A stretch of DNA of 40,652 nt from a virus (lineage: Duplodnaviria; Heunggongvirae; Uroviricota; Caudoviricetes). Under the pieces are notes generated by a model. The model worked only from the letters and a program-made list of their open reading frames with translations, did no database searches and was not told the origin of the DNA. The position numbers and the translations under genes were made by a program. Each line of letters starts with the position of its first letter. The stretch's first letter is position 1. The DNA lies in IMG/VR virus record IMGVR_UViG_2579778674_000010, one strand, 5' to 3'. Below are positions 5,257 through 28,676 of the stretch, in pieces.

Positions 5257-5704
5257 TCGTATCCTGCTTCTGCTGCTCTTTACCCTGGGCGATGCTGGCT
5301 GCTTCTGCAAGGATCTGCCAGTACAACTCTGGATTCTGCTTAAGCAGCGCGATCCCTCGTTCTGCCGTATATTCCAGTGCAACCTCAACACCATTAACCA
5401 GTTCACCAACCCCTTTCCAGTCTTTCAGCAGATAACGAGCGGCATTATCAATGAGTAAATCATCAACAGAATCCACCTCGGAAACCTTTGAAATATCAAA
5501 CTCCTTCGTTCCGACGTGCAAACTGGCATCCATTTTCTCAATGTGGCGACGGATTAATGCATTACGGGAGCGATACTGATCGTTATCGCTGCTTGCCACC
5601 AACAGTTTTAACCCGTCTACAGGTTTTAAGTCCTTCATTGGCGTAAACCAGCGTTCTCCACCAATGATAATTTTCTGATTAAGAATAAACATCCATAACC
5701 TCAT
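5243..5704 (-). CDS. Tail assembly chaperone G-like
   Basis: 153-aa acidic ORF immediately downstream of the major tail gene, ending ...DTIKKP-stop with the slippery site in its last codons. An alternative start at the second Met (5692) is possible. Confidence 0.7.
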   Translation of the reverse strand: MRLWMFILNQKIIIGGERWFTPMKDLKPVDGLKLLVASSDNDQYRSRNALIRRHIEKMDASLHVGTKEFDISKVSEVDSVDDLLIDNAARYLLKDWKGVGELVNGVEVALEYTAERGIALLKQNPELYWQILAEAASIAQGKEQQKQDTIKKP

Positions 5705-5752
5705 TCAATGCGTCCCCCTGTAGGGCAGTACCACAGGAGGAATAACGGAAAA

Positions 5753-6715
5753 TCAACTAATCGCCTCAGCACTGGCTTTTGCGATCACGGCAGCCGGGGA
5801 ATTTTTTTTTCTGGTTATCGTAGGTGCTTCATCTGCTGCGGTAATGCTCAATTGAACCTGGATAATGTCGCTATTACCCCCATCAGGCCATTCACCTGAC
5901 ACCTGAACCTTCGGGAAACTGAAAGTGTATGCCCCCTCTCCATTCGAAAGCGTGAAGCTGAACGGAACTGTTTCTCCAGTCAGTGTTTTACTCCAGATTT
6001 CCCACGCGGCTTTAGACCATGAAAGCGTCACCGTACCGGACGGTGTAAAAGTAGTCGGAATATTTGCTCCTGCATAAGGCGAGCCAGTCCCGATACAACG
6101 CTGTGTCTGGAGTTTGTTATCGAACTGAATATCAAAACTGTCGATACAAAAACCGTTACCTCCGGCAACACCATTCAGGCTTACTGCTGAAACCTCCTTA
6201 AACGAATAACGTAGCTTTCCTGCACTACCCACAGGTTCGCCTTTGATAAAATTCGTATCATCGGCCTTTGATTCCCAGTCCAGTCCGGCAAAGGTTACGG
6301 TCGCTGTAATATCGCCGTCGTTAGGGATCTGCATTTTCCATGAGCCAACCTGCGCTCCTCTGACGACAGAGGCAATTCCGACATCGGACGCATAGGTCGC
6401 CAGAGAAAATGTTATTCGCTCATTCCCCATTGTCAGAGAATCGCCTGACCATTCCGCGCCGAAACAGGATGCAAGAAAATCATCATGTTGACCCCAGCGA
6501 AATTTGGTACCAACATCACCGCCGACATCCACAGTGCCAGGCGTCGCCCCCTGAGCCATCCGGGAGCCACCAATCTCATTATTTTCGCCTTTATTCTGGG
6601 TGGGTTTTACTCCCCAGCTTGTGCGTTTTAATAAACTCCAGTCACCACTTGCTGGCGTAGTGCCTGCAACCGTCTCCCGGATAAATGCCGAGATAACCTT
6701 TGCACCTGAACTCAC
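5753..6715 (-). CDS. Major tail (tube) protein
   Basis: 320-aa ORF, Gly/Thr/Ser-rich beta-type composition, located just upstream of the chaperone and tape-measure genes. Assigned by position and composition, not by recalled sequence identity. Confidence 0.65.
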   Translation of the reverse strand: MSSGAKVISAFIRETVAGTTPASGDWSLLKRTSWGVKPTQNKGENNEIGGSRMAQGATPGTVDVGGDVGTKFRWGQHDDFLASCFGAEWSGDSLTMGNERITFSLATYASDVGIASVVRGAQVGSWKMQIPNDGDITATVTFAGLDWESKADDTNFIKGEPVGSAGKLRYSFKEVSAVSLNGVAGGNGFCIDSFDIQFDNKLQTQRCIGTGSPYAGANIPTTFTPSGTVTLSWSKAAWEIWSKTLTGETVPFSFTLSNGEGAYTFSFPKVQVSGEWPDGGNSDIIQVQLSITAADEAPTITRKKNSPAAVIAKASAEAIS

Positions 6716-7134: not shown

Positions 7135-7208
7135 TTGTAAGCCTGTAAAACACGGTAATGCTGCCAACTTACTGATTTAGTGTATGATGGTGATTTTAAG
7201 GTGCTTGC

Positions 7209-7484
7209 GTGGCTTCCATTTCCATCAGATGTCCTTCCTGCTCCGCTACTGAAGGCGTGGTGCGTAACGGCAAAAGCACTGCCGGACATCAGCGCTATCT
7301 CTGCTCTCACTGCCGTAAAACATGGCAACTGCAGTTCACTTACACCGCTTCTCAACCCGGTACGCACCAGAAAATCATTGATATGGCCATGAATGGCGTC
7401 GGATGTCGCGCCAGTGCACGCATTATGGGCGTTGGCCTCAACACGGTTTTACGTCACTTAAAAAACTCAGGCCGCAGTCGGTAA
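7209..7484 (+). CDS. insA: IS1 InsA
   Basis: 91-aa [61 protein letters not shown]..., recognised as IS1 InsA (zinc finger plus HTH). Confidence 0.95.
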
Positions 7485-7906
7485 CCTCGCGCATACAACC
7501 GGGCAGTGATGTGATTGTCTGCGCTGAAATGGACGAACAGTGGGGCTACGTCGGTGCTAAATCACGTCAGCGCTGGCTGTTTTACGCGTATGACAGGATA
7601 CGGAGGACGGTTGTGGCGCACGTCTTCGGTGAACGCACTCTGGCCACACTGGAGTGTCTTCTGAGCCTGCTGTCGGCCTTTGAGGTCGTGGTATGGATGA
7701 CGGATGGCTGGCCGCTGTATGAATCACGCCTGAAGGGAAAGCTGCACGTTATCAGCAAGCGTTACACTCAGCGCATTGAGCGACATAATCTGAATCTGAG
7801 ACAACATCTGGCAAGGCTGGGACGGAAGTCACTGTCGTTCTCAAAATCGGTGGAGCTGCATGACAAGGTCATCGGGCATTATCTGAACATAAAACACTAT
7901 CAGTAA
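7403..7906 (+). CDS. insB: IS1 InsB reading frame (made as InsAB' transposase by -1 frameshift)
   Basis: 167-aa ORF ...[41 protein letters not shown]... recognised as InsB. A6C slippery motif (aaaaaac) at 7460..7466 within the insA/insB overlap. Confidence 0.9.
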
Positions 7907-7921
7907 GTTGGAGTCATTACC

Positions 7922-11089: not shown

Positions 11090-12205
11090 TTAAATCCCTG
11101 CTTTTCTGAATACCTGTGCATCACGCTCACGGAGCTGCTTCAGCGTCAGCCATTCGCCTTTATCGGTGTAAAATTCATCTGGCGACATACCACCATCCCG
11201 AATCAGCTTTGCTCGGGTTTCCCCCACAATCTGTTTTTGTCTGGTGTAAGGCTGACGCAAAAACCATTCCCTGTAGGTTGTATCTCCGGCCACCACGCCA
11301 TCCATGCTGGCCCGCTCAGCCGGGGAAATATCGCGAACATCAATACCCAGTTCCTTCGCTGATTTCAGAATGAACGTTTCCGTTGAGCGGCAGCAGAAAT
11401 GAATTTTTCCCGGCCCCTGCAAATAAGGCACGCTGTGACCTACAGGTTTATTATTCAGCGTATATTTGAGGCGATCCCTGATTCGACATTGTGGCGTAGT
11501 ACGATTATCAAGCGTTGATAACCATTGCTTACCCTTAATCAAATCATTATTCGCGCTGGCAAAACTCTCACGGGCAGTAGCAGCAAGATGTCCAACCGCT
11601 GTTTTTGCAATGCTGGCCGCATTAGCCCGGCTCATCTGCAATGCACCATCCTGAAATCCCTTACTGACATGTCCCCGAATTTTTCTTGCGATCTGCTCAT
11701 TGGTATCCCCCAGCAAAAAACCCTGACGCACTGTATTTGTTATGCGTCTGAGCCGATCCGCCTCAAGATCTGAGGCCCACTCACTGAGCAGTCGTCCCTG
11801 GAATGGTCGCGCCATTGCAGCGGCATAAAGTGCATCAGGAGAGATACCAACCAGAGGGTGAACATCAGCAACAAAATCAGGTAGCATAGAATCAAACAGA
11901 CTTAACTGATAACCAGCCTCATAAATTGCCAGCTCGTTCAGCTCTCCGGAGAGACTGGTAAACATGCTGTTAATAGCAGTGCGGTTAACCTTTCTGACGC
12001 TCGCCAGAAGTGACTCCAGGCGCTTAACGGTAAAATTACCTGGATCGAGGCTGTCCAGTGCTATCAGCAGGCGAGCAGTAAGTTCCGCATCGCTGTCATT
12101 CAGTATTTTCACCATTCTGGCAGCCACGCCAGTGCTATAGCGGGATATCCAGACTGCATGAGCAATTGATTCATCACGCAGCCGTTCATTCACGGTTTGC
12201 ATCAT
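11090..12205 (-). CDS. Head morphogenesis protein (SPP1 gp7 / Mu F-like)
   Basis: 371-aa ORF immediately downstream of the portal gene and overlapping it, the usual position of F-like minor head proteins; contains a TPQCRIRDRL-type segment. Confidence 0.75.
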   Translation of the reverse strand: MMQTVNERLRDESIAHAVWISRYSTGVAARMVKILNDSDAELTARLLIALDSLDPGNFTVKRLESLLASVRKVNRTAINSMFTSLSGELNELAIYEAGYQLSLFDSMLPDFVADVHPLVGISPDALYAAAMARPFQGRLLSEWASDLEADRLRRITNTVRQGFLLGDTNEQIARKIRGHVSKGFQDGALQMSRANAASIAKTAVGHLAATARESFASANNDLIKGKQWLSTLDNRTTPQCRIRDRLKYTLNNKPVGHSVPYLQGPGKIHFCCRSTETFILKSAKELGIDVRDISPAERASMDGVVAGDTTYREWFLRQPYTRQKQIVGETRAKLIRDGGMSPDEFYTDKGEWLTLKQLRERDAQVFRKAGI

Positions 12206-13592
12206 TGATTTCCATCAGCATTACACTCTGATTTTTTAATTCATCGATCACTTCCTCTGGACGGGAATCCTGATCGATAAATTTCAACGCCTGCAACACC
12301 CGAACCGCATCAATCTGACGTATATCACCGCCCTGACGCAATGACTGAACAGCCAGCGCGGAGGATGAGTCAAACACCTGGGCAGATACATCCAGTTCAG
12401 TGCGCACATCCACATTGCCACCGCAACTCTCTCCGATCCATTCCGCCATTATCTGGAGAATATTATCGAGGGCATCTTCGAGGGAGTTCGCCATTGTATA
12501 AAGCGGCGAGTTTTCCTGCATTCGCTCTTCATTAGTCTGATCAACAGATTTGGTGGATGTATTTTCAGCACGCAGAAGTTTAGCGCCGGCATGACGCATC
12601 TGATTTTCCAGCTTCTCAAGTGATGTTTCGCCAGATTCTATCGCTGCGCCACTATGTTCAACATATTCGAGGCCATTTTTTGTTCTGTCCTCAAAAATCG
12701 TAGCGGTGGATGCACCAACCGTCAGTTCTTCATTCCTGTCCAGCCCGTAGGCCACCAGCAATGGAACGCGGGTAACATGAAGAATATTGTCCTGCTCGCT
12801 CTGGCTTTGCCAGTGCTTGATATTCAGCAAGCCAAGATTAAGCAATGGCGGTGTACCACGCATAAATCCTGTTTTCTTCGTGTACAGTGTTACCAGAGGA
12901 ATATCATCACGGCTGGTATTCCATGACTCATGAAGCGTCCAGACAGATTCGCCATTAGTGCCTTCGCTACGTCGATAAATTTCAACTCGACGGGGCATAA
13001 TATGGCGGATCTGCTCCACCTTCTTCTGCCCGAAATCATCACCATCAATAATGATGACCTCTTTTATACGCAAATCAGTGAGAACAACTTTCCCTTTTTC
13101 AACTTTCGATTTCCATCCAATAACCTGGCGTGGATTCAGCATCGTAACGTACGGACGACCACCGGTCGCGTTTTCATCGGCTTTTGTACGAATCTCTTTC
13201 ATATCCGTTCGTGGATAGTCCACCAGCGCATGTGCCACACCATACTGAAATGCGAGGCTGAAAAATTGCTGCGCCCACACATCCAGTCGGCTCCCCTCCA
13301 TGTCGATATTTTCTGCATATTCCCTGATTTTTGCCGGCGTTTCCTCACTCAATACTGTCGGCTCTGCAAATATGCGCCCAATATTTTGCTTGATGCTTTC
13401 TTCATACACAGGAAGTAGCGTAGCCACAGACAGGCGTTTTTTATAAGCGTCTTCATCTTCGTTAGGCCATTTTGGGAGATAATTTTCCCCCTGCCTGCGC
13501 ATTTCAAGCGTACCGCCCATCAGTGCGTCGTTAATATCCCACGCCTCCAGCATATCGTTATAGTCGAGGTTGGGTGTTGATATATCAGCCAT
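12186..13592 (-). CDS. Portal protein
   Basis: 468-aa ORF immediately downstream of the terminase large subunit; size and position typical of portal proteins. Confidence 0.8.
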   Translation of the reverse strand: MADISTPNLDYNDMLEAWDINDALMGGTLEMRRQGENYLPKWPNEDEDAYKKRLSVATLLPVYEESIKQNIGRIFAEPTVLSEETPAKIREYAENIDMEGSRLDVWAQQFFSLAFQYGVAHALVDYPRTDMKEIRTKADENATGGRPYVTMLNPRQVIGWKSKVEKGKVVLTDLRIKEVIIIDGDDFGQKKVEQIRHIMPRRVEIYRRSEGTNGESVWTLHESWNTSRDDIPLVTLYTKKTGFMRGTPPLLNLGLLNIKHWQSQSEQDNILHVTRVPLLVAYGLDRNEELTVGASTATIFEDRTKNGLEYVEHSGAAIESGETSLEKLENQMRHAGAKLLRAENTSTKSVDQTNEERMQENSPLYTMANSLEDALDNILQIMAEWIGESCGGNVDVRTELDVSAQVFDSSSALAVQSLRQGGDIRQIDAVRVLQALKFIDQDSRPEEVIDELKNQSVMLMEINDANRE

Positions 13593-13594
13593 AA

Positions 13595-14905
13595 TTAAAT
13601 CCGAAGTGATGTGACTCTTCCGGTCGGTTTGACAATAGGGAATTGCTTAACGATGAAATAACCTCCGGCATCATTCGGGTGATCATTGCCAGATTTTTTA
13701 TCAGGCTCCCCCTTCTCATCCCAGACCTGTTGCTCCAGAGATTCGGCATATAACGGGCAACGCTTCACATTAACTTTATAGCGACGCTCACCATTGGCAT
13801 TGCAGAACATTGCATTCATTGAGTTAACGCGATCTTTTACTGGCGGGTTCGAGCTGTTCACCACAACGTTAAAACCAGCCTGCTTAAGCTGGGCTATATC
13901 CGTCGTACTTGCGTTACTTGATTTTCTGGAATCCCCGGAAGCATCTGGATAAATATAAATTTCCCTCACTTTCCGGTAATCATTCCCATCATACAGCCAG
14001 AAGCGTTCTTTAATGATGCGGATCATATCCGGCGTATCGTAGGCATTGATGATTTCAGTTACCGCACATGGAAGCCCCAAACGCAGCACATGGACGATTC
14101 CCGCCATCTTTCCAACGTTAAAATCCATCCCAATATAAATCGGCTCCCCTGGCTGCTCCACTTCTTCGCAATTATTCAGTTTCCGGTCAAACTGATGGTA
14201 AACAGTACCACTTGTCAGGTTAGTAAACTGTCCTCGAAGATAGGCTTTAATCAGCTCTGGAGGGTATGATTCAAGAAGCGAAGGAATGTAATCTGCTGGC
14301 AGGTTCTTTTCATTATCGAAAGTAGATGCCTGCACCAGACCATACAGTGAGGCCAGCTCTGTTTTTTCACGCACGGCTTTAACAAACTGCTCGTAGACAA
14401 ATTTGAATCCTTCCGGCGTGGTTGTAACGTCAATACCGTTGCGAAGTCCATCAATCTTATAACGCATACGTGCAATTATCTTGCGCCACGCCGTTCTGGC
14501 TTTTTCCTTCGGCAAAATGTCCAGTTCATCCACCAACGCATTACCAATTTTGAAACCGACGATCGTTTGTGGCTTCTCCATCGATCTGCAGATAGTGGTT
14601 CCCCGATACTGGCGTCCGTAATAAAAGTGAACCTCTTTATTTCCCTCATTAATTTTTACGTTCAATCCCCAGTCAGCAGCAACTTCTTCCACTGTAGGGT
14701 AAAAAATATCGCGAATTTGGGGATACGTTGGCGCAAAATATCCCTGATTTATACCTGGATGCTCCCAAATCCCCTTGCATATGCCGCCACACCCAACCCA
14801 TGTTTTGCCCGAGCCAAAACCAGCAATATAGGCTTTAAATTTATGGGGCATTGAAAGAAATCGCGCCTGAGGCACATTAAGCGTCGGAGAGATCATCTTC
14901 ATCAC
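13595..14905 (-). CDS. Terminase large subunit
   Basis: 436-aa ORF with a Walker A-like motif near the N-terminus (AGFGSGKT) and acidic nuclease-type C-terminal half. Overlaps the upstream small-subunit gene. Confidence 0.85.
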   Translation of the reverse strand: MMKMISPTLNVPQARFLSMPHKFKAYIAGFGSGKTWVGCGGICKGIWEHPGINQGYFAPTYPQIRDIFYPTVEEVAADWGLNVKINEGNKEVHFYYGRQYRGTTICRSMEKPQTIVGFKIGNALVDELDILPKEKARTAWRKIIARMRYKIDGLRNGIDVTTTPEGFKFVYEQFVKAVREKTELASLYGLVQASTFDNEKNLPADYIPSLLESYPPELIKAYLRGQFTNLTSGTVYHQFDRKLNNCEEVEQPGEPIYIGMDFNVGKMAGIVHVLRLGLPCAVTEIINAYDTPDMIRIIKERFWLYDGNDYRKVREIYIYPDASGDSRKSSNASTTDIAQLKQAGFNVVVNSSNPPVKDRVNSMNAMFCNANGERRYKVNVKRCPLYAESLEQQVWDEKGEPDKKSGNDHPNDAGGYFIVKQFPIVKPTGRVTSLRI

Positions 14906-15971
14906 TCCTTACTCTGGCATCAACCACATTAATATTGATCGCCACAGGCTGGGGATGTTCATTATCTTCCACCGTTTCGATCTCTTTGCGCAGCTTCTGG
15001 TTTTCCATTCTGCGCCGTTCAATTTCCAGTTCCTGTAGCCGTTTATCTGCACATAAAGCCCCGCCAGCAGAAAACAAACGCAACAATTCACGCCGGGCGG
15101 CAGCCTTATCCTCCAGCAGGATCTCAACGCCGAATTTTCCGAATTTTGCCCCTGCATATAATTGCCGCGCATCCCCATCAAGCAGAGTGGTATCAGCCAT
15201 ATAAAGCTGTCCCGTTCCCTCACCGCAGCACTTCGGGCAGTCCGGATTGGGTATGGCGTTATCAACAAAGCCGAGGCCTCCATATTCCGGTTCGGGTTTG
15301 CCATCTCTGGAAGCCTGCGCCGCTGCCTTGTCGAATTCTGCTATATCGCGCCACTGGTAGAGATGATTCTCGCCCCAGCAATAACGGCAGTTAACACGGC
15401 GAAATTGTGCAAGCTGATTGGGGTCGGCCAGGACAATAGCCATCAACTGACTCACTAGTAAATCCAGGTCTGCGGTATAGCGTTTCTGGTACTGATTGCG
15501 GAAGTAGCTGATAGCGCGAAAAACCCTGGCATTTCTAAGCATACGACTGGCGTTGCTGTTAGCTGTCGCACCTTGCCCCTCATAACCGGCTAGTCGGTAC
15601 GCCTCTGTCGGCTTTTTACCCTGAGCAACAAGCATCGCAAACTTAGCCTGCTGGTCAGAAATGCCGAATTCATCGGGACAGAACGAAAATTCCTCCGCGT
15701 CGCCCTCATTCAGGCCCGCATCGAATACTGGCTTTTTTTCCTGAGATTTTTCGTTCCGCTTTTGTGCAGTCTGCGCAGATTTTTTCTGCGCACTTTTTTG
15801 CGCAGTTTTGCACATTTCTGTCTGCGCATTTTTCGGAGTTTTTTTGATGTAACGACGGGCTGTTGCGTAATTCAGTCCCCTTGCTTCACACCATGCCACC
15901 GGAGATATACCGGAGCGGGTGTATTCAGCAATATACTCCTGCTGCAACGCCCCCCAGTCCGGTCTGCTCAT
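14877..15971 (-). CDS. Terminase small subunit (probable)
   Basis: 364-aa ORF with an N-terminal HTH-like segment, a lysine/glutamine-rich low-complexity linker (KTAQKSAQKKSAQTAQKR), and a 3-prime end overlapping the terminase large subunit start. Confidence 0.6.
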   Translation of the reverse strand: MSRPDWGALQQEYIAEYTRSGISPVAWCEARGLNYATARRYIKKTPKNAQTEMCKTAQKSAQKKSAQTAQKRNEKSQEKKPVFDAGLNEGDAEEFSFCPDEFGISDQQAKFAMLVAQGKKPTEAYRLAGYEGQGATANSNASRMLRNARVFRAISYFRNQYQKRYTADLDLLVSQLMAIVLADPNQLAQFRRVNCRYCWGENHLYQWRDIAEFDKAAAQASRDGKPEPEYGGLGFVDNAIPNPDCPKCCGEGTGQLYMADTTLLDGDARQLYAGAKFGKFGVEILLEDKAAARRELLRLFSAGGALCADKRLQELEIERRRMENQKLRKEIETVEDNEHPQPVAININVVDARVRSDEDDLSDA

Positions 15972-15974
15972 CAG

Positions 15975-16226
15975 TTAGTCCTGATTTTTATCCACCCTGA
16001 GTAGTTCGCGCAGAGCAAAGGCATCCCCTTTTCTGGCAAGCTTAAACAATGCCGCTCGTAACTCGGCTTCACCTTTCGCTCTGCCCTTACGGATGGCCGC
16101 ATAAAAATCTGTCATTGCTTCCCGATTTTCTTTCAGTCGGTTCAGATCAACATCCAGAACGTCAGCGATTTGTTGTGCAGTCATCCGGCACGCTGCCAGA
16201 GACTCGACTTTCGAATACGGAATCAT
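15975..16226 (-). CDS. Small hypothetical protein, possibly HTH-containing
   Basis: 83-aa ORF directly upstream of the terminase small subunit. Start uncertain; it overlaps the end of the preceding ORF. Confidence 0.35.
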   Translation of the reverse strand: MIPYSKVESLAACRMTAQQIADVLDVDLNRLKENREAMTDFYAAIRKGRAKGEAELRAALFKLARKGDAFALRELLRVDKNQD

Positions 16227-17094
16227 TTGTCACCCCCATTGATATGCAGGGTGTCTTCTTCCTGTATTTTTCGTGAAGGATTTTTACTGCAGCGTTGTTC
16301 CAGGTGACCTGATGGTGAATGCGTTTATGGCTGGCACCCATCAGTGAGATTTTTACGCACGACGGCGCATACATGACGGAGTAAAAACTTTTAACGTAGG
16401 TTCCGGAATCCAGATACAGCTCGGTCATTCCGCCGCTGTTTTTCTGCGTCTGTTTCTGCCCTAACTGGACAGCACCGATCGTCATAAACAATTCACCACA
16501 GCGACCGAGATTCGTGTACGTATTCACATCCTCGTTAATGCGCCCCATGAATGAGAACGGTCGATCAACCGAACAGATAAAGCTGTTCATTGCCTTGCGT
16601 TTCACCCACGAAGCATGGCCGCCATTGTCACCAAGAAAATCCCCGCCCTGCGACATAGCGATGGAAAGAGCAGGTATTGATTCGTAGTACGCCAGCATTT
16701 CAGAAAGGATCGCATCCAGTTTCCTTATCGGAAAATAGGCCTGGTCATAGTTGCGATCCACCCGAAACTGGAACTCGTGATAATCATCATCGAGCTGAAT
16801 GAAGTATTTACACCCGACCAGTTTTGCCAGGTCGAAACAGGCATTACGGGCGTAAAAAATTGAGCGGCGGTCACAGAAATTATCGGCTTCGTCAAAACGA
16901 CTGGCGATATCGGCTTTGGAAAACACCAGCACCTGTTCACCAAATTCAGCCATGTACTGATTCCGTGTCTTATCTTCATCATCAACAACGATAAAAATTT
17001 TCCCGGTATAGCCAGCACGACGCAACGTCCGGTAAGTCAGAACTTTGTCCGGTCGCCCGTGAGTCAGAATAAAGGCGCAAAAATCATCACGCAT
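16162..17094 (-). CDS. Hypothetical phage protein, possibly nucleotide-sugar-transferase-like
   Basis: Start taken at MRDDFCAF (ATG 17094), giving an 8-nt overlap with the ParB-like gene. Contains FIVVDDEDK and IQLDDDYHEF acidic motifs reminiscent of DxD glycosyltransferases. Function not established. Confidence 0.45.
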   Translation of the reverse strand: MRDDFCAFILTHGRPDKVLTYRTLRRAGYTGKIFIVVDDEDKTRNQYMAEFGEQVLVFSKADIASRFDEADNFCDRRSIFYARNACFDLAKLVGCKYFIQLDDDYHEFQFRVDRNYDQAYFPIRKLDAILSEMLAYYESIPALSIAMSQGGDFLGDNGGHASWVKRKAMNSFICSVDRPFSFMGRINEDVNTYTNLGRCGELFMTIGAVQLGQKQTQKNSGGMTELYLDSGTYVKSFYSVMYAPSCVKISLMGASHKRIHHQVTWNNAAVKILHEKYRKKTPCISMGVTNDSVFESRVSGSVPDDCTTNR

Positions 17095-17878
17095 ATTCCT
17101 CCTCCTCACCACCATGCATGATCTCCACCATGCGCTGCGTCATCCGGACAAATCCATTTTCAATAGCCTGCTGATAATCAATGATCACCAGCGCCGACTC
17201 CTCGAAAAAACACTGAATTTCAGAGGGGGCGTGAGCGTAATAGTCCGCAATTCTGCTGAAATTAAACACCGTGTGACGTTCTGCCGCACACAGGAGGAAT
17301 TCCTCAATATCAGGCTCAAGGGACGCCGAACGTATCCGGCTGATCAGCTCCTGAGTTTTCGTATCGTCGTACAGTTCACTGATATCCGGTTTACCGCCCG
17401 ACGGCTCATAAACAGGCGTATCAATTTTCGTCGTATACGGCTCCTCCTCATTTCCTGTACCGGGCAAAACATCCGTCAACAGTTCATCAATTTCTGTCGG
17501 GATGAAGCCTGTCAGGGAGACATCAAAATCAGCATTGATTAGGTCCGACAGCTCCATCCGCAACAGATCTTCATCCCAGCCAGCATTCATCGGCAGGCGA
17601 TTATCTGCCAGGCGGTACGCCTTTTTCTGCTCATCCGTCAGGCCAGACAGAACAATGACCGGAACAGAATCCATTTTGAGCATTTCAGCCGCCATAACAC
17701 GACCGTGACCCGCAATAATTTCGCCCTTTTCGTCAATCAGCACCGGATTAGTCCAGCCGAATTGCTTAATACTTTCTACCAGTTGTGCCACCTGCTCAGG
17801 GCTGTGCGTCCTGGCGTTGTGCGCATACGGTGACAATTCTTGTAATGGGCGATAGACTATCTTTAATTTCTCGCTCAT
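17087..17878 (-). CDS. ParB-like nuclease domain protein
   Basis: 263-aa ORF with the ParB N-terminal domain signature (...NPVLIDEKGEIIAGHGRVMAA...). Lies upstream of the packaging genes. Probably the counterpart of the K-12 Rac gene ynaK. Confidence 0.75.
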   Translation of the reverse strand: MSEKLKIVYRPLQELSPYAHNARTHSPEQVAQLVESIKQFGWTNPVLIDEKGEIIAGHGRVMAAEMLKMDSVPVIVLSGLTDEQKKAYRLADNRLPMNAGWDEDLLRMELSDLINADFDVSLTGFIPTEIDELLTDVLPGTGNEEEPYTTKIDTPVYEPSGGKPDISELYDDTKTQELISRIRSASLEPDIEEFLLCAAERHTVFNFSRIADYYAHAPSEIQCFFEESALVIIDYQQAIENGFVRMTQRMVEIMHGGEEEEYA

Positions 17879-17892
17879 ACAGCCTTGCTTTA

Positions 17893-17929
17893 TGAATAAA
17901 ACGCACCCCAGCAGCCAGTGCTACTGGGG
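17893..17929 (-). terminator. Hairpin plus U-rich tract downstream of trkG
   Basis: Plus ccccag-(12 nt)-ctgggg at 17906..17929; minus-strand RNA has the hairpin followed by UGCGUUUUAUU. The loop is long, so strength is uncertain. Confidence 0.35.
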
Positions 17930-18015: not shown

Positions 18016-19473
18016 TTAGGAGCGCCAAAAAAAACCTGAAAACAATATAATAACAGGATAAATTTCAAGGCGACCAAGAATCATAGCTATGCACATTAAA
18101 CATTTTGCAATGTCATTAAGCACTCCGAATGACGATGCAGTAGCCCCAAAACCTAATCCCATATTATTAATACATGCAGCCACTGTTGCAAATGATGTAA
18201 GAAAATCATATCCCATACCATTTAACACCAGTATAAAAAACACCGTGAAGAGAGTATAAAGAAAAAAGAAACTCCATACAGACCTCATTACACGATCTGT
18301 AACTATCTTCCCTCCTACATTTACACTCAACAACGCTCTGGGATGAGAAAGCTGATTTATCTCGTGTTTGCTTTGTTTGAAAAGTATAAGAAATCGAAGT
18401 GACTTAATTCCACCACAAGTTGAACCTATACATCCCCCAAAGAAACTTGACAACAGCAAAAACACTATCGTGTGCGTGGGCCAGTTTGCATAATCCTGCG
18501 TAGCTAAACCATTATCAGTGAGCATGGAGCTGGCAAGAAAAAACGAATGAATAAAACTTCCATGCAAGTCATACATACCTATATGCCAGACCTGGAAAGA
18601 GGTAACAATGATCACCCCTAAGGCTATTAACAGAAAGAAACGAAGTTCAATATCTCTGATTAAAGGTTTTATCGTTTTTCTGCTAATAACAATATACCAA
18701 AGAGTGAAGTTGAAAGCCGATAGCAGGGAAAAAGAACCAGCCACCAGCTCAACCAAATAGTTATTAAAATATCCGATACTCTCGCTATGAGTTGAGAAAC
18801 CACCAAGCGAAACTGTGGAAATCCCGTGACAAATAGCATCAAACAAAGGCATTCCTGCAAGTCTATAACAGACAATACAAGCAATACCTAATAAAGAATA
18901 AGTTATCCACAGTGTCCGTGACGTATCGGCCAGGCGGGGAGTGAGTTTGTCATCCTTAAATGGCCCCGGCATTTCTGACTGATAAAGCTTTGCACCACCA
19001 ATACCCAATAATGGCAATACTGCAACCGCCAGAACAATAACTCCTAAACCACCTATAAAATTTAACTGTGACCGATAGTACAAATATGCCCGAGGTAATG
19101 AACTAACATCATCAATTACAGTTGCTCCTGTTGTTGTTATTCCAGAAACCCCTTCAAACAGAGCATCAATGAACGTTAAATTAAGTTCTGAGTCAATCCA
19201 TAAAGGGAATGCACTAATAACAGAAAACAAAATCCAAAACATTACAATTATAATAAACCCATCACGGGTACGTAATTGAATGCCAGATTTCTTAGTTGTA
19301 TACCACGCTCCGCCACCAATGCAAAAAAATATAACGAAAGTTATAAAGAAAACGAACAGGCTTTTTTCTTTATAAAACAATGCTACAACCATTGGTGGCA
19401 ACATTGAAAGACTATAGAGCCAAACCAGGAACCCACACATATGAGTAACAACTCTTACATGAGATGTATTCAT
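18016..19473 (-). CDS. trkG: TrkG potassium uptake protein (TrkH family), prophage cargo
   Basis: Polytopic membrane protein. Sequence from MNTSHVRVVTHMCGFLVWLYSLSMLPP onward is recognised as the Rac-prophage TrkG of E. coli K-12; the track ORF has 6 extra N-terminal codons. Confidence 0.9.
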   Translation of the reverse strand: MNTSHVRVVTHMCGFLVWLYSLSMLPPMVVALFYKEKSLFVFFITFVIFFCIGGGAWYTTKKSGIQLRTRDGFIIIVMFWILFSVISAFPLWIDSELNLTFIDALFEGVSGITTTGATVIDDVSSLPRAYLYYRSQLNFIGGLGVIVLAVAVLPLLGIGGAKLYQSEMPGPFKDDKLTPRLADTSRTLWITYSLLGIACIVCYRLAGMPLFDAICHGISTVSLGGFSTHSESIGYFNNYLVELVAGSFSLLSAFNFTLWYIVISRKTIKPLIRDIELRFFLLIALGVIIVTSFQVWHIGMYDLHGSFIHSFFLASSMLTDNGLATQDYANWPTHTIVFLLLSSFFGGCIGSTCGGIKSLRFLILFKQSKHEINQLSHPRALLSVNVGGKIVTDRVMRSVWSFFFLYTLFTVFFILVLNGMGYDFLTSFATVAACINNMGLGFGATASSFGVLNDIAKCLMCIAMILGRLEIYPVIILFSGFFWRS

Positions 19474-19610
19474 ATCTAAATATTCTTTCAATTATAACCA
19501 CCTTGCTGCAATATTATGATTATACTGTATAAAATTTAACTCCTCTTAGATCTTACTTCACTGTTCCTTATGAAACAATCATCAAAATGAATCATATTGT
19601 AGTTAAGATT

Positions 19611-24218: not shown

Positions 24219-24262
24219 TTGACATAACCCTCAAAAACACGCATTTATAATGCATGTTTTTG
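24219..24262 (+). promoter_or_regulatory. Putative promoter with an overlapping inverted repeat upstream of the YeaR-like gene
   Basis: TTGACA at 24219..24224 and TATAAT at 24246..24251 (spacing longer than optimal). Imperfect inverted repeat tcaaaaacacgcat-ttataa-atgcatgtttttga spans the -10 and ends at the ribosome-binding site. Confidence 0.35.
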
Positions 24263-24273
24263 AGGAGGTGGTT

Positions 24274-24612
24274 ATGACACACAAGAGAATTCCTAAAGAT
24301 TGGGTAATCAAACGCTCAACTCCGTTCTTCACAAAAGAGAACGTACCTTCAGCGTTATTAACACATCATAATACAGCAGCAGGTGTTTTTGGGCAGTTGT
24401 GCGTAATGGAAGGTACTGTAACATATTATGGTTTTACTGATGAGAATGCTACTGAACCGGAGATAAAAGTAGTCATTAATGCTGGCGCTTTTGCAACAAG
24501 CCCACCACAATACTGGCACCGTGTTGAACTAAGCGATGATGCTCAGTTTAATATTAACTTTTGGGTCGCTCCAGACTTCTCGGGCGAAAAAGTCTATAGC
24601 ACCAAAAAATAG
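24274..24612 (+). CDS. YeaR-like DUF1971 protein
   Basis: ATG at 24274 preceded by GAGGAGGTGG. MTHKRIPKDWVIKRSTPFFTKE...GQLCVMEGTVTYYGF...AGAFATSPPQYWHRVE...FNINFWVAP aligns in my recollection with E. coli YeaR (RSTPFW..., SVMHGAV.YLGY, AGQFAVFPPEKWH, FNIDFFVAP). Confidence 0.7.
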   Translation: MTHKRIPKDWVIKRSTPFFTKENVPSALLTHHNTAAGVFGQLCVMEGTVTYYGFTDENATEPEIKVVINAGAFATSPPQYWHRVELSDDAQFNINFWVAPDFSGEKVYSTKK

Positions 24613-24641
24613 ATGATCATATTAAAAATGCTTTAACAGTC

Positions 24642-24680
24642 AGACCCGGCAGGGCTATCCCCGACGGGTCTCATTTTTGT
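24642..24680 (+). terminator. Hairpin plus U-run after the YeaR-like gene
   Basis: agacccg...cgggtct (7-bp stem with an inner GGG/CCC stem) followed by catttttgt. Confidence 0.4.
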
Positions 24681-25374
24681 AAATATATTGGTTCTACATT
24701 GACAGGAGACTTCAACCATAAGAAGTAATCTGAATACTTGAGCAATAAATTTACTTAAGATTAATGAGCGCACCTTGCCGGACAAAGATAAACCAAGGTA
24801 ACACCTTTTTTCTAGCCAGTATGTAATCAATCAGAAAGCCGCTCCATAAGAACAACAGCAAGACAATAAATTGCCATTACAGCCGCAATAGCCAGCGCAC
24901 ATTTGAGAACCAGCACGACAACCCCCTGTATTAGACGCACACCAGTCCTGATAAATATGAGGCTGTCTCGTCAGTGATTCAATACAACTATTGGGTATAG
25001 TTTCTGTGATTTTATTCTGTAGAAATGGAACACAACAACCAGTCACCACCAGCACTTCTTTAAATACGCCAAGTCCGACGCAAGCTAACCTTCTAGTCCG
25101 CTTTGAGCGAAAAGCGGACAGGAACATTCTGGTTAATAGATATCAATGCTAACAAAAAAGCTCCCGATGGAGATTTTGAAACCGCTTCCACATAATGAAA
25201 TAAAAGGATTTATTTCTGGTCATGCCCACACATTGACCACGTCGAAGTAAGTAGCTCCGCTTCGCGGAGTTACTTAAGATAATTTCTATGTAGTTCCATG
25301 CTATGATTTAATTTTCAAGTTACAAAATCTAAATCTACAAATGTCCATTTGGGTGTAAAATTACACAATCCTAT

Positions 25375-27700
<2,326 letters not shown>

Positions 27701-28001
27701 TTTAATTACCTTATATATCCAAACTCTTAATTTTCTCTTTTTTACCATAGGATTAATCCAAAATAAAGACCTTGTTGACTAAACCCTCATGTACAAAATG
27801 CACACTTACTCAAAAGGATCTGGAGGCAATCTCGACCTCCATGATTTAGTTCCTAGGGATAAGCAGAAATCTAGCACTGGATTAAAATTTAAAAATAATA
27901 ATCAATAGGTTATAATGGTTTTTATTCGCATCCATGGGATCTGCTGCTGCCCGCATGATGTTGGATGCGACGGCGCTGGCACGACCTCACCCGGTGAAAC
28001 G

Positions 28002-28448
28002 ATGAAACGCGAAAGGGTTGTTCTTCGGGAAGGTGCAGTTGGACTTTCAATCGATGACGTTGCAAAAGAGGCTGGCGTCAGTAAGGCAACGGTAATGTAC
28101 GATCATAAGTCAAAGCAAGATTTGCTCAGCGATCTCATCAGTCGCCTTATGCCAGTAGAGGAGGAACGTGTTCAGCAAGCGATAGCGGAAAGTAATAATA
28201 CCCCACATCCCGCACTCTATGGGCGAATTATTTCAGCCAGTAATGCTCTCAGTCATACTGAGAGAGCAGTAGTGCTGGCGGTCAGCGAATCGTTAACTAA
28301 CGATACGAATATCAGGGACACCATGCGTTCCTGCACAAACAAAGATTTGGATGAGATAAAAAGAGGACCAAAACCAGACGTTGCCGTCCTGGTATATTTG
28401 GCGTTATCTGGTATCTACTGCCAAGAATTTTTTGATTTTTACAAATGA
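28002..28448 (+). CDS. TetR/AcrR-like HTH protein, possibly truncated
   Basis: LSIDDVAKEAGVSKATVMYDHKSKQDLL resembles the TetR N-terminal HTH signature. Only about 148 aa from ATG 28002, shorter than typical TetR proteins. Divergent from the adjacent three-gene operon. The Cys-rich track extension from 27915 was not adopted. Confidence 0.4.
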   Translation: MKRERVVLREGAVGLSIDDVAKEAGVSKATVMYDHKSKQDLLSDLISRLMPVEEERVQQAIAESNNTPHPALYGRIISASNALSHTERAVVLAVSESLTNDTNIRDTMRSCTNKDLDEIKRGPKPDVAVLVYLALSGIYCQEFFDFYK

Positions 28449-28676
28449 TCTCCTGGCGAGCGAGATAAAATTATCGAAGGCATTCGCTGTTTGTATGAAT
28501 CATACCCTTACAAGTCTGAATAAATAATGTCTCCGGGAATGACATTTCATGTGCGACTAATTCGCGATATTCCTATACGTAAAGGTCCGCTTTTGGCACA
28601 AAGTGGACAACCACGCTAGCTCTACCCTGTGCCACAAAATGTCAATTTGCATCTGAACTAATGCACTTTAATCTCG

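Follow-up and report, generated by a model that had tools for sequence, protein, structure and literature searches.

Two overlapping minus-strand genes lie shortly ahead of the terminase genes in the stretch of viral DNA analysed here (IMG/VR record IMGVR_UViG_2579778674_000010; 40,652 nucleotides in full, hereafter called the window), which is an intact Rac-type lambdoid prophage of Escherichia coli. One codes for a ParB-like protein and the other for a predicted glycosyltransferase of the 'TET-Associated Glycosyltransferase' (TAGT) family. We found that the true partner of the TAGT is not the ParB domain of its neighbour but the C-terminal domain of that protein, which we call TPD, for TAGT-partner domain (about 110 residues, plus the linker that precedes it). 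TPD and TAGT form an obligate module, shared by tailed viruses of haloarchaea and those of many bacterial phyla. The module occurs in genomes that lack the usual acceptor pathway, and the reading that we find the most plausible, without going so far as to call it probable, is partner-dependent late glycosylation of phage DNA as a counter-defence.

The glycosyltransferase and its partner domain

The upstream gene (17087..17878, minus strand) encodes the partner, a protein of 263 residues that appears in the list of open reading frames (ORFs), is annotated by PGAP as 'ParB/Srx family N-terminal domain-containing protein' and is an intact form of ynaK. The TAGT gene (16162..17094, minus strand) encodes 310 residues. 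Its listed ORF runs from 16162 to 17115, but the homologues and PGAP favour the ATG at 17094, giving a protein that begins with MRDDF, and leave the ATG at 17115 unused. Read directly from the coding strand, the junction is GAGGAGGAGGAATATGCGTGATGAT (also written GAGGAGGAGGAATATGCGTGA): the partner gene stops with TGA at 17089-17087, the TAGT gene starts with ATG at 17094-17092, and the two share the eight nucleotides ATGCGTGA (17087..17094, minus strand). This is the overlap described by an earlier note on this DNA, made from the sequence alone, and the ORFs lie at the positions that it gave. A strong Shine-Dalgarno sequence, GAGGAGGAGGA, sits 5' of the TAGT start codon, and the combination of overlap and ribosome-binding site indicates that the partner and TAGT are translationally coupled.

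The earlier note had guessed a nucleotide-sugar transferase fold for the 310-residue protein from its DDxD-type motifs, quoting KIFIVVDDEDKT and FIQLDDDYHEF. Both motifs are found in the protein, and the guess is borne out by profile searches and modelling. The protein matches the Pfam TAGT profile PF20691 over positions 4-205 of 205 (E = 8.4e-35, 121 bits for a cut-off of 27.5) and PHROG 842 at 1e-103, and PGAP names it 'GREB1-related protein'. An AlphaFold (AF2) model, built from 39 homologues that are all at least 59% identical, has a GT-A fold, with a predicted local distance difference test (pLDDT) score mostly above 90 for residues 1-215; the C-terminal ~90 residues are conserved but modelled with low confidence, owing to the shallowness of this alignment. 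Foldseek searches with the model retrieved GT-A enzymes from the PDB at ~10% identity, with ColGalT1, LH3, GalNAc-T2 and glycogenin at the top, and phage TAGT proteins from BFVD, with template modelling (TM) scores of 0.7-0.8. A T4-like beta-glucosyl-HMC-alpha-glucosyltransferase was matched with an E-value of 4e-7. Both sequence and model place the protein among the GT-A glycosyltransferases of the TAGT/GREB1 family.

In GT-A enzymes, the end of strand 2 contacts the nucleotide of the sugar donor, and a DxD motif after strand 4 binds the metal-diphosphate. The acidic motifs picked out in the earlier note would be the corresponding invariant nucleotide- and metal-binding motifs of the family. 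The DDED motif (D38-D41; 16972..16983, minus strand) ends beta-strand 2 (strand E32-38), with D38 and D41 invariant and D39 conserved in at least 90% of the 39 sequences, and the DDD motif (D102-D104; 16783..16791, minus strand), invariant in the same set, follows beta-strand 4 (strand E97-101). In the NEDV motif (N187-V190; 16525..16536, minus strand), N187, D189 and V190 are invariant and E188 reaches at least 90%. This motif may supply the catalytic base, E188 or D189, placed as in inverting GT2-type GT-A enzymes, a suggestion based on its position relative to the DxD motif and on the reported sister relationship of TAGT and GT2 (PMC13216743). Further invariant or near-invariant motifs are Q149-G-G-D152, G221-G-M-T224 and R258-x-H-H261. 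The TAGT is basic, with an isoelectric point (pI) of 8.0 (family median, 8.9) that rises to 9.7 for residues 218-288.

The TAGT family is large (at least 8000 clusters at 90% identity) and unusually conserved for a phage gene, with 50-57% identity between Enterobacteria, Bacteroidota, Firmicutes, Desulfovibrionaceae and others. Among enterobacterial TAGT copies the non-synonymous divergence (dN) is 0.14-0.19 and the synonymous divergence (dS) is saturated. Purifying selection is strong on both genes of the pair (dN 0.14-0.30), the ratio dN/dS being an upper bound only, as dS is saturated. By its motifs and its modelled fold, the TAGT appears catalytically intact.

As for the partner, it matches Pfam PF02195 at 1.2e-6 and PHROG 620 at 2e-90 and is strongly acidic (pI 4.4; family median, 4.6). 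Its AF2 model comprises a ParB/Srx N-terminal domain (residues 1-95), helices (103-134), a disordered acidic stretch (137-169, pLDDT <50) and a helical C-terminal domain (170-245). The N-terminal domain (residues ~1-100; 17579..17878, minus strand) fits the ParB/Srx superfamily (PF02195) in sequence and fold and has a box-II-like motif, AGHGR, and a box-III-like motif, YRLADN. In the ParB pocket, G57-x-x-R60 and D92-N93 are invariant; relative to the CTP-binding set (box I Q/R, box II GERR, box III EN), box II has His in place of Glu and Gly in place of the first Arg. Over residues 3-141 the partner resembles phage fusions of ParB to DNA methyltransferases, whose ParB module it matches (PHROG 498, 1e-50; PADLOC MTase_II, 2e-38).

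The remainder of the protein, the linker and TPD with its acidic tail (residues 137-263; 17090..17470, minus strand), was delineated in an alignment of 53 diverse copies, in which the helical part has the consensus FLxxAAxRHxVFNYxKIAxYYAH..QxLMExSALVIID..AIxNG[YF]. TPD has no significant match in Pfam, NCBIfam or the PDB. We found 1188 clusters of it at 50% identity among 1.84 billion representatives, and in nearly all of the best 150 hits, save a few fragments or chimeras, the match extends to the C-terminus. The stretch predicted to be disordered contains a linear motif, Y-[TS]-x-K-[IV]-x-x-P-x-Y-x-P (residues 148-159, YTTKIDTPVYEP; 17402..17437, minus strand). Across the 53 sequences, which span several phyla, its P155 and Y157 do not vary, and Y148 and K151 are conserved in at least 90%.

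To survey the pair across viruses, relatives of the TAGT were drawn from viral contigs and from a single genome of each species, and mechanically called ORFs were searched with the window proteins. Of ~90 TAGT-seeded loci, essentially all those that could be checked by sequence have, on the upstream side of the TAGT gene and abutting or overlapping it, a gene for a homologue of the partner, a recurrence that far exceeds chance. The pair is present in Proteobacteria, Bacteroidota, Firmicutes, Acidobacteriota, bacteria of the candidate phyla radiation and the haloarchaeal virus HHTV-2; among cultured phages it occurs in Lactobacillus phage c5 and its relatives, L. gasseri phi jlb1, Porphyromonas phages and HHTV-2. 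The Porphyromonas phages have kept it at a TAGT identity of just 27%. Several loci have an upstream gene limited to the final ~130 residues, corresponding to residues 140-255 here, with no ParB domain, and in Vibrio jumbo phages TPD is likewise a stand-alone protein. The reverse search gave the same picture: all 80 viral loci seeded with a TPD profile have a TAGT, directly downstream in 70, and 57 of these 80 have a TPD without an attached ParB domain. As TPD occurs alone in most of these loci, it is TPD, and not the ParB domain, that is the true partner of the TAGT, and the two form an obligate module.

The rates at which the three parts diverge agree with this. Over 51 loci, TAGT distances correlate with TPD distances (r=0.54, a value reached in none of 2000 permutations), to which the shared ancestry of neighbouring genes contributes, and with those of the ParB N-terminal domain at r=0.32 only. 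TPD and TAGT are also far better conserved, with mean p-distances of 0.54 and 0.48, respectively, as against 0.70 for the ParB domain. We further count in favour of obligate pairing the eight-nucleotide overlap with its strong ribosome-binding site and the complementary charges of the two proteins (pI ~4.5 for the partner; ~8.9 for TAGT and 9.7 for its C-terminal region). The T4-like TAGT of Aeromonas phage 65, a single example, has no TPD within 3 kb; this phage belongs to a group that makes hydroxymethylcytosine (hmC) DNA.

The earlier note had suggested, as a possibility, a DNA or protein modification module with an anti-restriction role. The glycosyltransferase part of that proposal holds, in family and in fold, but the obligate partner is an undescribed C-terminal domain rather than the ParB domain, and an anti-restriction function of the pair is a supposition that we share. 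In E. coli, a 2.2-kb query spanning both genes was matched at a coverage of at least 80% in 867 of the 5426 complete genomes, and likewise in ten sequenced induced phages.

Candidate acceptors

Glycosylation of phage DNA is a classic counter-defence and the source of widely used enzymes for mapping 5-hydroxymethylcytosine (5hmC). In the mechanism that we favour, the TAGT would act as a Mn2+- and nucleotide-sugar-dependent GT-A glycosyltransferase within a self-contained, late-expressed module, and would work only together with the product of the upstream coupled gene. The acidic TPD would bind the basic TAGT. Where present, the ParB/Srx N-terminal domain would bring the enzyme to double-stranded phage DNA or activate it there, as we infer from two analogues described below, the ParB-methyltransferase fusions and ParB176. 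Since the module is presumably transcribed with the terminase genes, the sugar would be added to replicated phage DNA just before or during packaging, and the glycosylated incoming genome would be protected from restriction or other DNA-sensing defences of the next host. The physical complex, the DNA target, the timing and the counter-defence role are all conjectural. In favour of DNA as the target, all characterised phage members of the TAGT family act on DNA (PMC13390438; PMC13216743; PMC8256090).

Several observations weigh against this reading, the foremost being the acceptor. No TET/JBP enzyme, dCMP/dUMP hydroxymethylase (thymidylate synthase-like) or C5-methylase is found in the part of the prophage annotated by PGAP, and none is encoded by phage c5, whose 31.8-kb genome is complete. 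The same holds for the flanks of ~50 loci, scanned with Pfam over three genes downstream and two upstream in each locus (150 and 88 proteins, respectively) and summarized as the 25 commonest families of each scan, a summary that a rare single occurrence could escape. Within the same three scopes there is no primary alpha/beta-glucosyltransferase either. On this coverage we rejected the idea of a TET/JBP enzyme or a hydroxymethylase hidden nearby. Neither the prophage nor the other small phages with the module make 5hmC or 5-hydroxymethyluracil (5hmU), and the acceptor must consequently differ from that of all characterised TAGT enzymes. To our knowledge, all cases of phage DNA glycosylation need a hydroxymethylated pyrimidine, and we know of no glycosyltransferase that glycosylates a canonical DNA base. 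The other difficulties concern the partner and the locus. The absence of the ParB domain from most TPD-seeded loci means that DNA targeting by ParB is not a universal mechanism. Conservation in the family does not extend to the box-I residues of the ParB nucleotide pocket, box I Arg being replaced by Met in some close homologues. Neither the model nor sequence searches detected a DNA-binding helix-turn-helix in the very acidic partner. The position before the terminase genes is also a general slot for late accessory genes. Lastly, GREB1, a distant member of the family, is reported to be a protein O-GlcNAc transferase (PMC7968844).

One way to reconcile the DNA reading with the missing pathway is that the sugar is attached without a hydroxymethyl handle, either directly to a base that carries no modification or elsewhere on the DNA. 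We consider this more specific proposal unlikely. If true, direct glycosylation of unmodified DNA would be an undescribed chemistry, present in about one-sixth of complete E. coli genomes as well as in tailed viruses of haloarchaea and of numerous phyla of bacteria. In that case TPD would be a new type of cofactor that opens double-stranded DNA or presents it to the TAGT.

The main rival, to which we give clearly less weight than to DNA glycosylation, is that the TAGT glycosylates a protein. The most economical acceptor would be the partner itself, a situation for which glycogenin, its own acceptor, is a precedent; another phage or host protein recruited by TPD would be an alternative. The disordered TPD motif Y-[TS]-x-K-I-x-x-P-x-Y-x-P would present Tyr, Thr or Ser hydroxyls to the active site, and the glycosylated acidic partner might, for instance, mimic DNA, be injected to counter restriction or take part in packaging. 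The universal presence of TPD rather than of the ParB domain argues for this version, as do the two (nearly) invariant tyrosines and the conserved Thr/Ser of its predicted disordered acidic stretch, yet a linear motif of this kind is equally well explained as a docking peptide. That no DNA acceptor pathway was found also speaks for a protein acceptor, and the TAGT of Aeromonas phage 65, from the hmC-type group and without TPD, fits the notion that TPD supplies here what hmC DNA supplies there. The precedent of GREB1 points the same way, although it is set against a family whose characterised phage members all act on DNA. The top PDB matches, ColGalT1, LH3, GalNAc-T2 and glycogenin, are protein-modifying GT-A enzymes, but at ~10% identity such matches mirror what has been crystallised. 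The frequent fusion of TPD to a methyltransferase-type ParB module and the resemblance to ParB176 point to DNA instead, and the basic TAGT is as expected of a nucleic-acid-binding protein.

That the acceptor is a small molecule or a nucleotide seems improbable. The TAGT would in that case modify a nucleoside or nucleotide hydroxyl, an immune signalling nucleotide or a cell-envelope precursor, and the partner would be its regulatory subunit and bind nucleotides. AvpGT in complex with the nucleoside Ara-A is among the better structural matches (TMq 0.47), and nucleotidyltransferase and CofD-like genes occur in some loci. Nothing else in the context supports this idea, however: the ParB domain is dispensable in most TPD loci, the TAGT gives no PADLOC hit, and both the juxtaposition with the terminase genes and the DNA precedent of the family would be left unexplained.

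The locus gives a concrete form to the question of solitary TAGTs: those covered here have an obligate, undescribed partner domain, often fused to ParB, would always be expressed together with packaging genes, and occur in genomes without the usual acceptor. As the prophage is of an inducible Rac type, routine genetic and mass-spectrometric work in E. coli can establish the acceptor, the sugar and the role. Whether it turned out to be a new modification of DNA or a ParB-like protein that carries sugar, the result would be new for such phages.

Genomic setting of the module

The window is 99.97% identical to NZ_CP134380.1 across 30 kb. Its late region, on the minus strand, runs from Q-like and nin genes through the holin, lysozyme and Rz genes, the trkG moron, the ParB-like partner and the TAGT to a small TerS-like gene, the genes for the small (TerS) and large (TerL) terminase subunits, the portal gene and the head and tail genes. 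The earlier note had placed the pair immediately upstream of the terminase genes; it does precede TerS and TerL, but the small TerS-like ORF intervenes before TerS. This ORF (15975..16226, minus strand) encodes a basic protein of 83 residues from the first ATG (69 residues, 15975-16184, in PGAP) and begins inside the 3' end of the TAGT gene. It matches PHROG 309, 'terminase small subunit', at 8e-23, and jackhmmer ties it to a TerS-sized gene located 3' of TAGT in distant loci; it is missing from sibling phages without the module. We considered it as a third component of the module and rejected this in favour of a TerS-like packaging protein, on the strength of PHROG 309 and the iterative search. 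The phage thus has both a mini TerS-like protein, homologous to part of PHROG 309, and a TerS of 364 residues. Downstream come TerS (14877..15971) and TerL (13595..14905), identified by PGAP and by scans with Pfam Terminase_2 and Terminase_6N/6C, and the portal (12186..13592), identified by PGAP, all on the minus strand.

In ~50 diverse loci, the TAGT is followed by TerS, then by a TerL of at least four unrelated Pfam types, and then by the portal gene. The TerL types are Terminase_6N (21), Terminase_3 (15), T7-type (5), GpA (3) and others. In nearly every case the module borders directly on the terminase genes, and the genes 5' of it are heterogeneous, with functions in replication, recombination or lysis. 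However, phages with homologous TerS and TerL, for example Yersinia vB_YenM_210.17 and Klebsiella phi9.2, lack the module, which is therefore an accessory cassette and not part of the packaging machine. In Rac-SA53, LT-IIa toxin genes occupy its slot. The notion that the ParB-like 'nuclease' aids the terminase at pac or cos, with the TAGT merely travelling along, or that the pair is a decaying remnant of a TET-ParB-glycosyltransferase hypermodification cluster, is accordingly very improbable: the module does lie directly 5' of TerS/TerL in most loci and after cos in phage c5 (in the order cos, partner, TAGT, TerS, TerL), and clusters combining ParB, 5mYOX and a glycosyltransferase do exist, but siblings package without it, it accompanies at least four unrelated TerL families (Terminase_6, Terminase_3, GpA and T7-type), the ParB domain is often absent while TAGT and TPD are always kept, and decay is ruled out by the 50-57% TAGT identity across phyla, the invariant catalytic residues and a dN far below the saturated dS.

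In some metagenomic phages, TPD and TAGT are separated by genes for a CofD-like phospho-transferase and a MobA-like nucleotidyltransferase, a combination that recalls F420 CofC/CofD. Other inserts encode a histidine phosphatase-cytidylyltransferase fusion, a radical S-adenosylmethionine (SAM) enzyme, a SAM methyltransferase or a second TAGT; the loci with such extra enzymes are L160:2845-5282, L162:3107-5474, L212:1419-2384, L215:4380-5336, L147:4381-5358 and L220:4380-5261. An epimerase and a sugar nucleotidyltransferase are also seen among the neighbour genes. The inserted genes would provide donor-synthesis or tailoring enzymes, giving these loci the character of a glycan pathway, and hint at more elaborate, possibly phospho-linked, glycan decorations. 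Two TAGT paralogues, one of them of 564 residues, surround a single TPD gene or stand in tandem in three loci (L106:2970-5117, L127:3581-6161, and L160:1531-2385 with 5289-6140), which suggests the stepwise addition of two sugars.

Other features of the window can be noted. The trkG potassium transporter moron (18016-19491) lies between the lysis cassette and the ParB-like gene, and a terminator-like hairpin (CCCCAG...CTGGGG followed by TTTTATT; 17896..17929, minus strand), found by direct reading of the sequence, separates it from the partner gene; the late antiterminated transcript would presumably read through it. In the 5' part of TerS (15747-15846), about five degenerate direct repeats of 12-21 nt, each with the palindrome TGCGCA, encode a repetitive SAQK/TAQK peptide stretch and could represent either a pac-type recognition site or a mere low-complexity linker. 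Positions 7153-7920 are the sole stretch that differs from an otherwise 99.9%-identical reference prophage (L001, 11724-12021), and correspond to a segment replaced or inserted amid the head-tail connector genes. Further along, a moron island of low GC content (35-37%; 24250-28450) contains a minus-strand operon (25375-27748) encoding an adenosine deaminase-like amidohydrolase (PADLOC CARF_ADA deaminase domain, 3e-36), an ITPase-like non-canonical purine NTP pyrophosphatase and a ThsA-type SIR2 protein (9e-32), flanked by a TehB-like gene and a gene for a TetR regulator (24250-24612 and 27915-28448, both on the plus strand). The island looks like a candidate three-gene defence or counter-defence cassette.

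Comparison with known systems

The enzyme family and the general link between ParB proteins and DNA modification are already known. What is new with respect to the searchable literature is the obligate partnership with TPD, the stand-alone TPD and the lack of any known acceptor pathway. We found no paper on the ParB/TPD-TAGT pair or on the TPD domain; the search did not extend to Iyer et al. 2013, which defined the TAGT family and may already note ParB-TAGT pairs without TET. Literature searches on ynaK, on DNA modification in HHTV-2 and on any characterised pairing of a ParB with a glycosyltransferase likewise gave nothing relevant. The question itself has been raised from the side of the enzymes: ~65% of mined phage glycosyltransferase contigs have no 5mYOX or thymidylate synthase neighbour, and a 2026 survey reported solitary TAGTs in 288 of 753 TAGT-encoding phage genomes, leaving their function open (PMC13216743).

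Characterised members of the family include the T2/T6 enzyme, a TAGT that adds a second glucose to glucosyl-hmC (PMC13390438; PMC13216743), and the TET-coupled phage glycosyltransferases, which glycosylate 5hmC (PMC8256090; 2023 preprint). Our protein resembles these enzymes, including the TET/5mYOX-coupled glycosyltransferases, and more distantly JGT and GREB1, in sequence, in its GT-A fold and in its DxD and catalytic-acid motifs, and is likewise phage-encoded and expressed with late genes. Unlike them, it is accompanied by no alpha/beta-glucosyltransferase, TET/JBP, hydroxymethylase or C5-methylase, so that the acceptors 5hmC, 5hmU and glucosyl-hmC are unavailable. Its subfamily also has an obligate TPD partner, which is lacking in one T4-like example, that of Aeromonas phage 65.

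As for the partner, it shares the fold of the ParB/Srx N-terminal domain and the GxxR and DN motifs with canonical ParB, Spo0J and KorB. It differs from them in being acidic, in having no detected helix-turn-helix and in a TIGR00180 score under the cut-off; no parA is annotated in the covered prophage stretch, and there is no parS-like repeat near the partner gene. In view of the undetected helix-turn-helix, the lack of parA and of parS-like repeats within these scopes, the acidity and the location in an integrated lambdoid prophage, we rejected a canonical role in plasmid or chromosome partition. Closer relatives are found among modification systems. Fusions of the ParB-CTPase fold to DNA methyltransferases (N6_N4_Mtase) are frequent in prophages (PMC12704722), and these prophage-enriched fusions (PHROG 498) contain the same ParB-plus-helical module as the first ~140 residues of the partner. 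In the present system, by contrast, the enzyme is separate, would be attached non-covalently via TPD, and would transfer a sugar rather than a methyl group.

The closest parallel is the pair formed by the thymine dioxygenase 5mYOX176 and ParB176, which the dioxygenase requires specifically on double-stranded DNA (O'Toole et al., PNAS 2026, PMC13229309). ParB176 consists of a nucleotide-binding domain, a short helical segment, an unstructured linker of ~50 residues and a C-terminal domain, and has no recognisable DNA-binding domain (PMC13229309). Compared by this published description only, our partner has the same layout, with linkers of ~35-50 residues in the two proteins, and also lacks a recognisable DNA-binding domain. 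Both systems are phage-borne and place a modification-type enzyme beside an orphan ParB-like protein, in cognate, co-evolving pairs. They differ in that the enzyme here is a glycosyltransferase and not an Fe(II)/2-oxoglutarate dioxygenase, and in that TPD often occurs without any ParB domain. If the TAGT does act on DNA with the help of its partner, the module would extend an emerging theme, that of orphan ParB proteins as cofactors of DNA-modifying enzymes.

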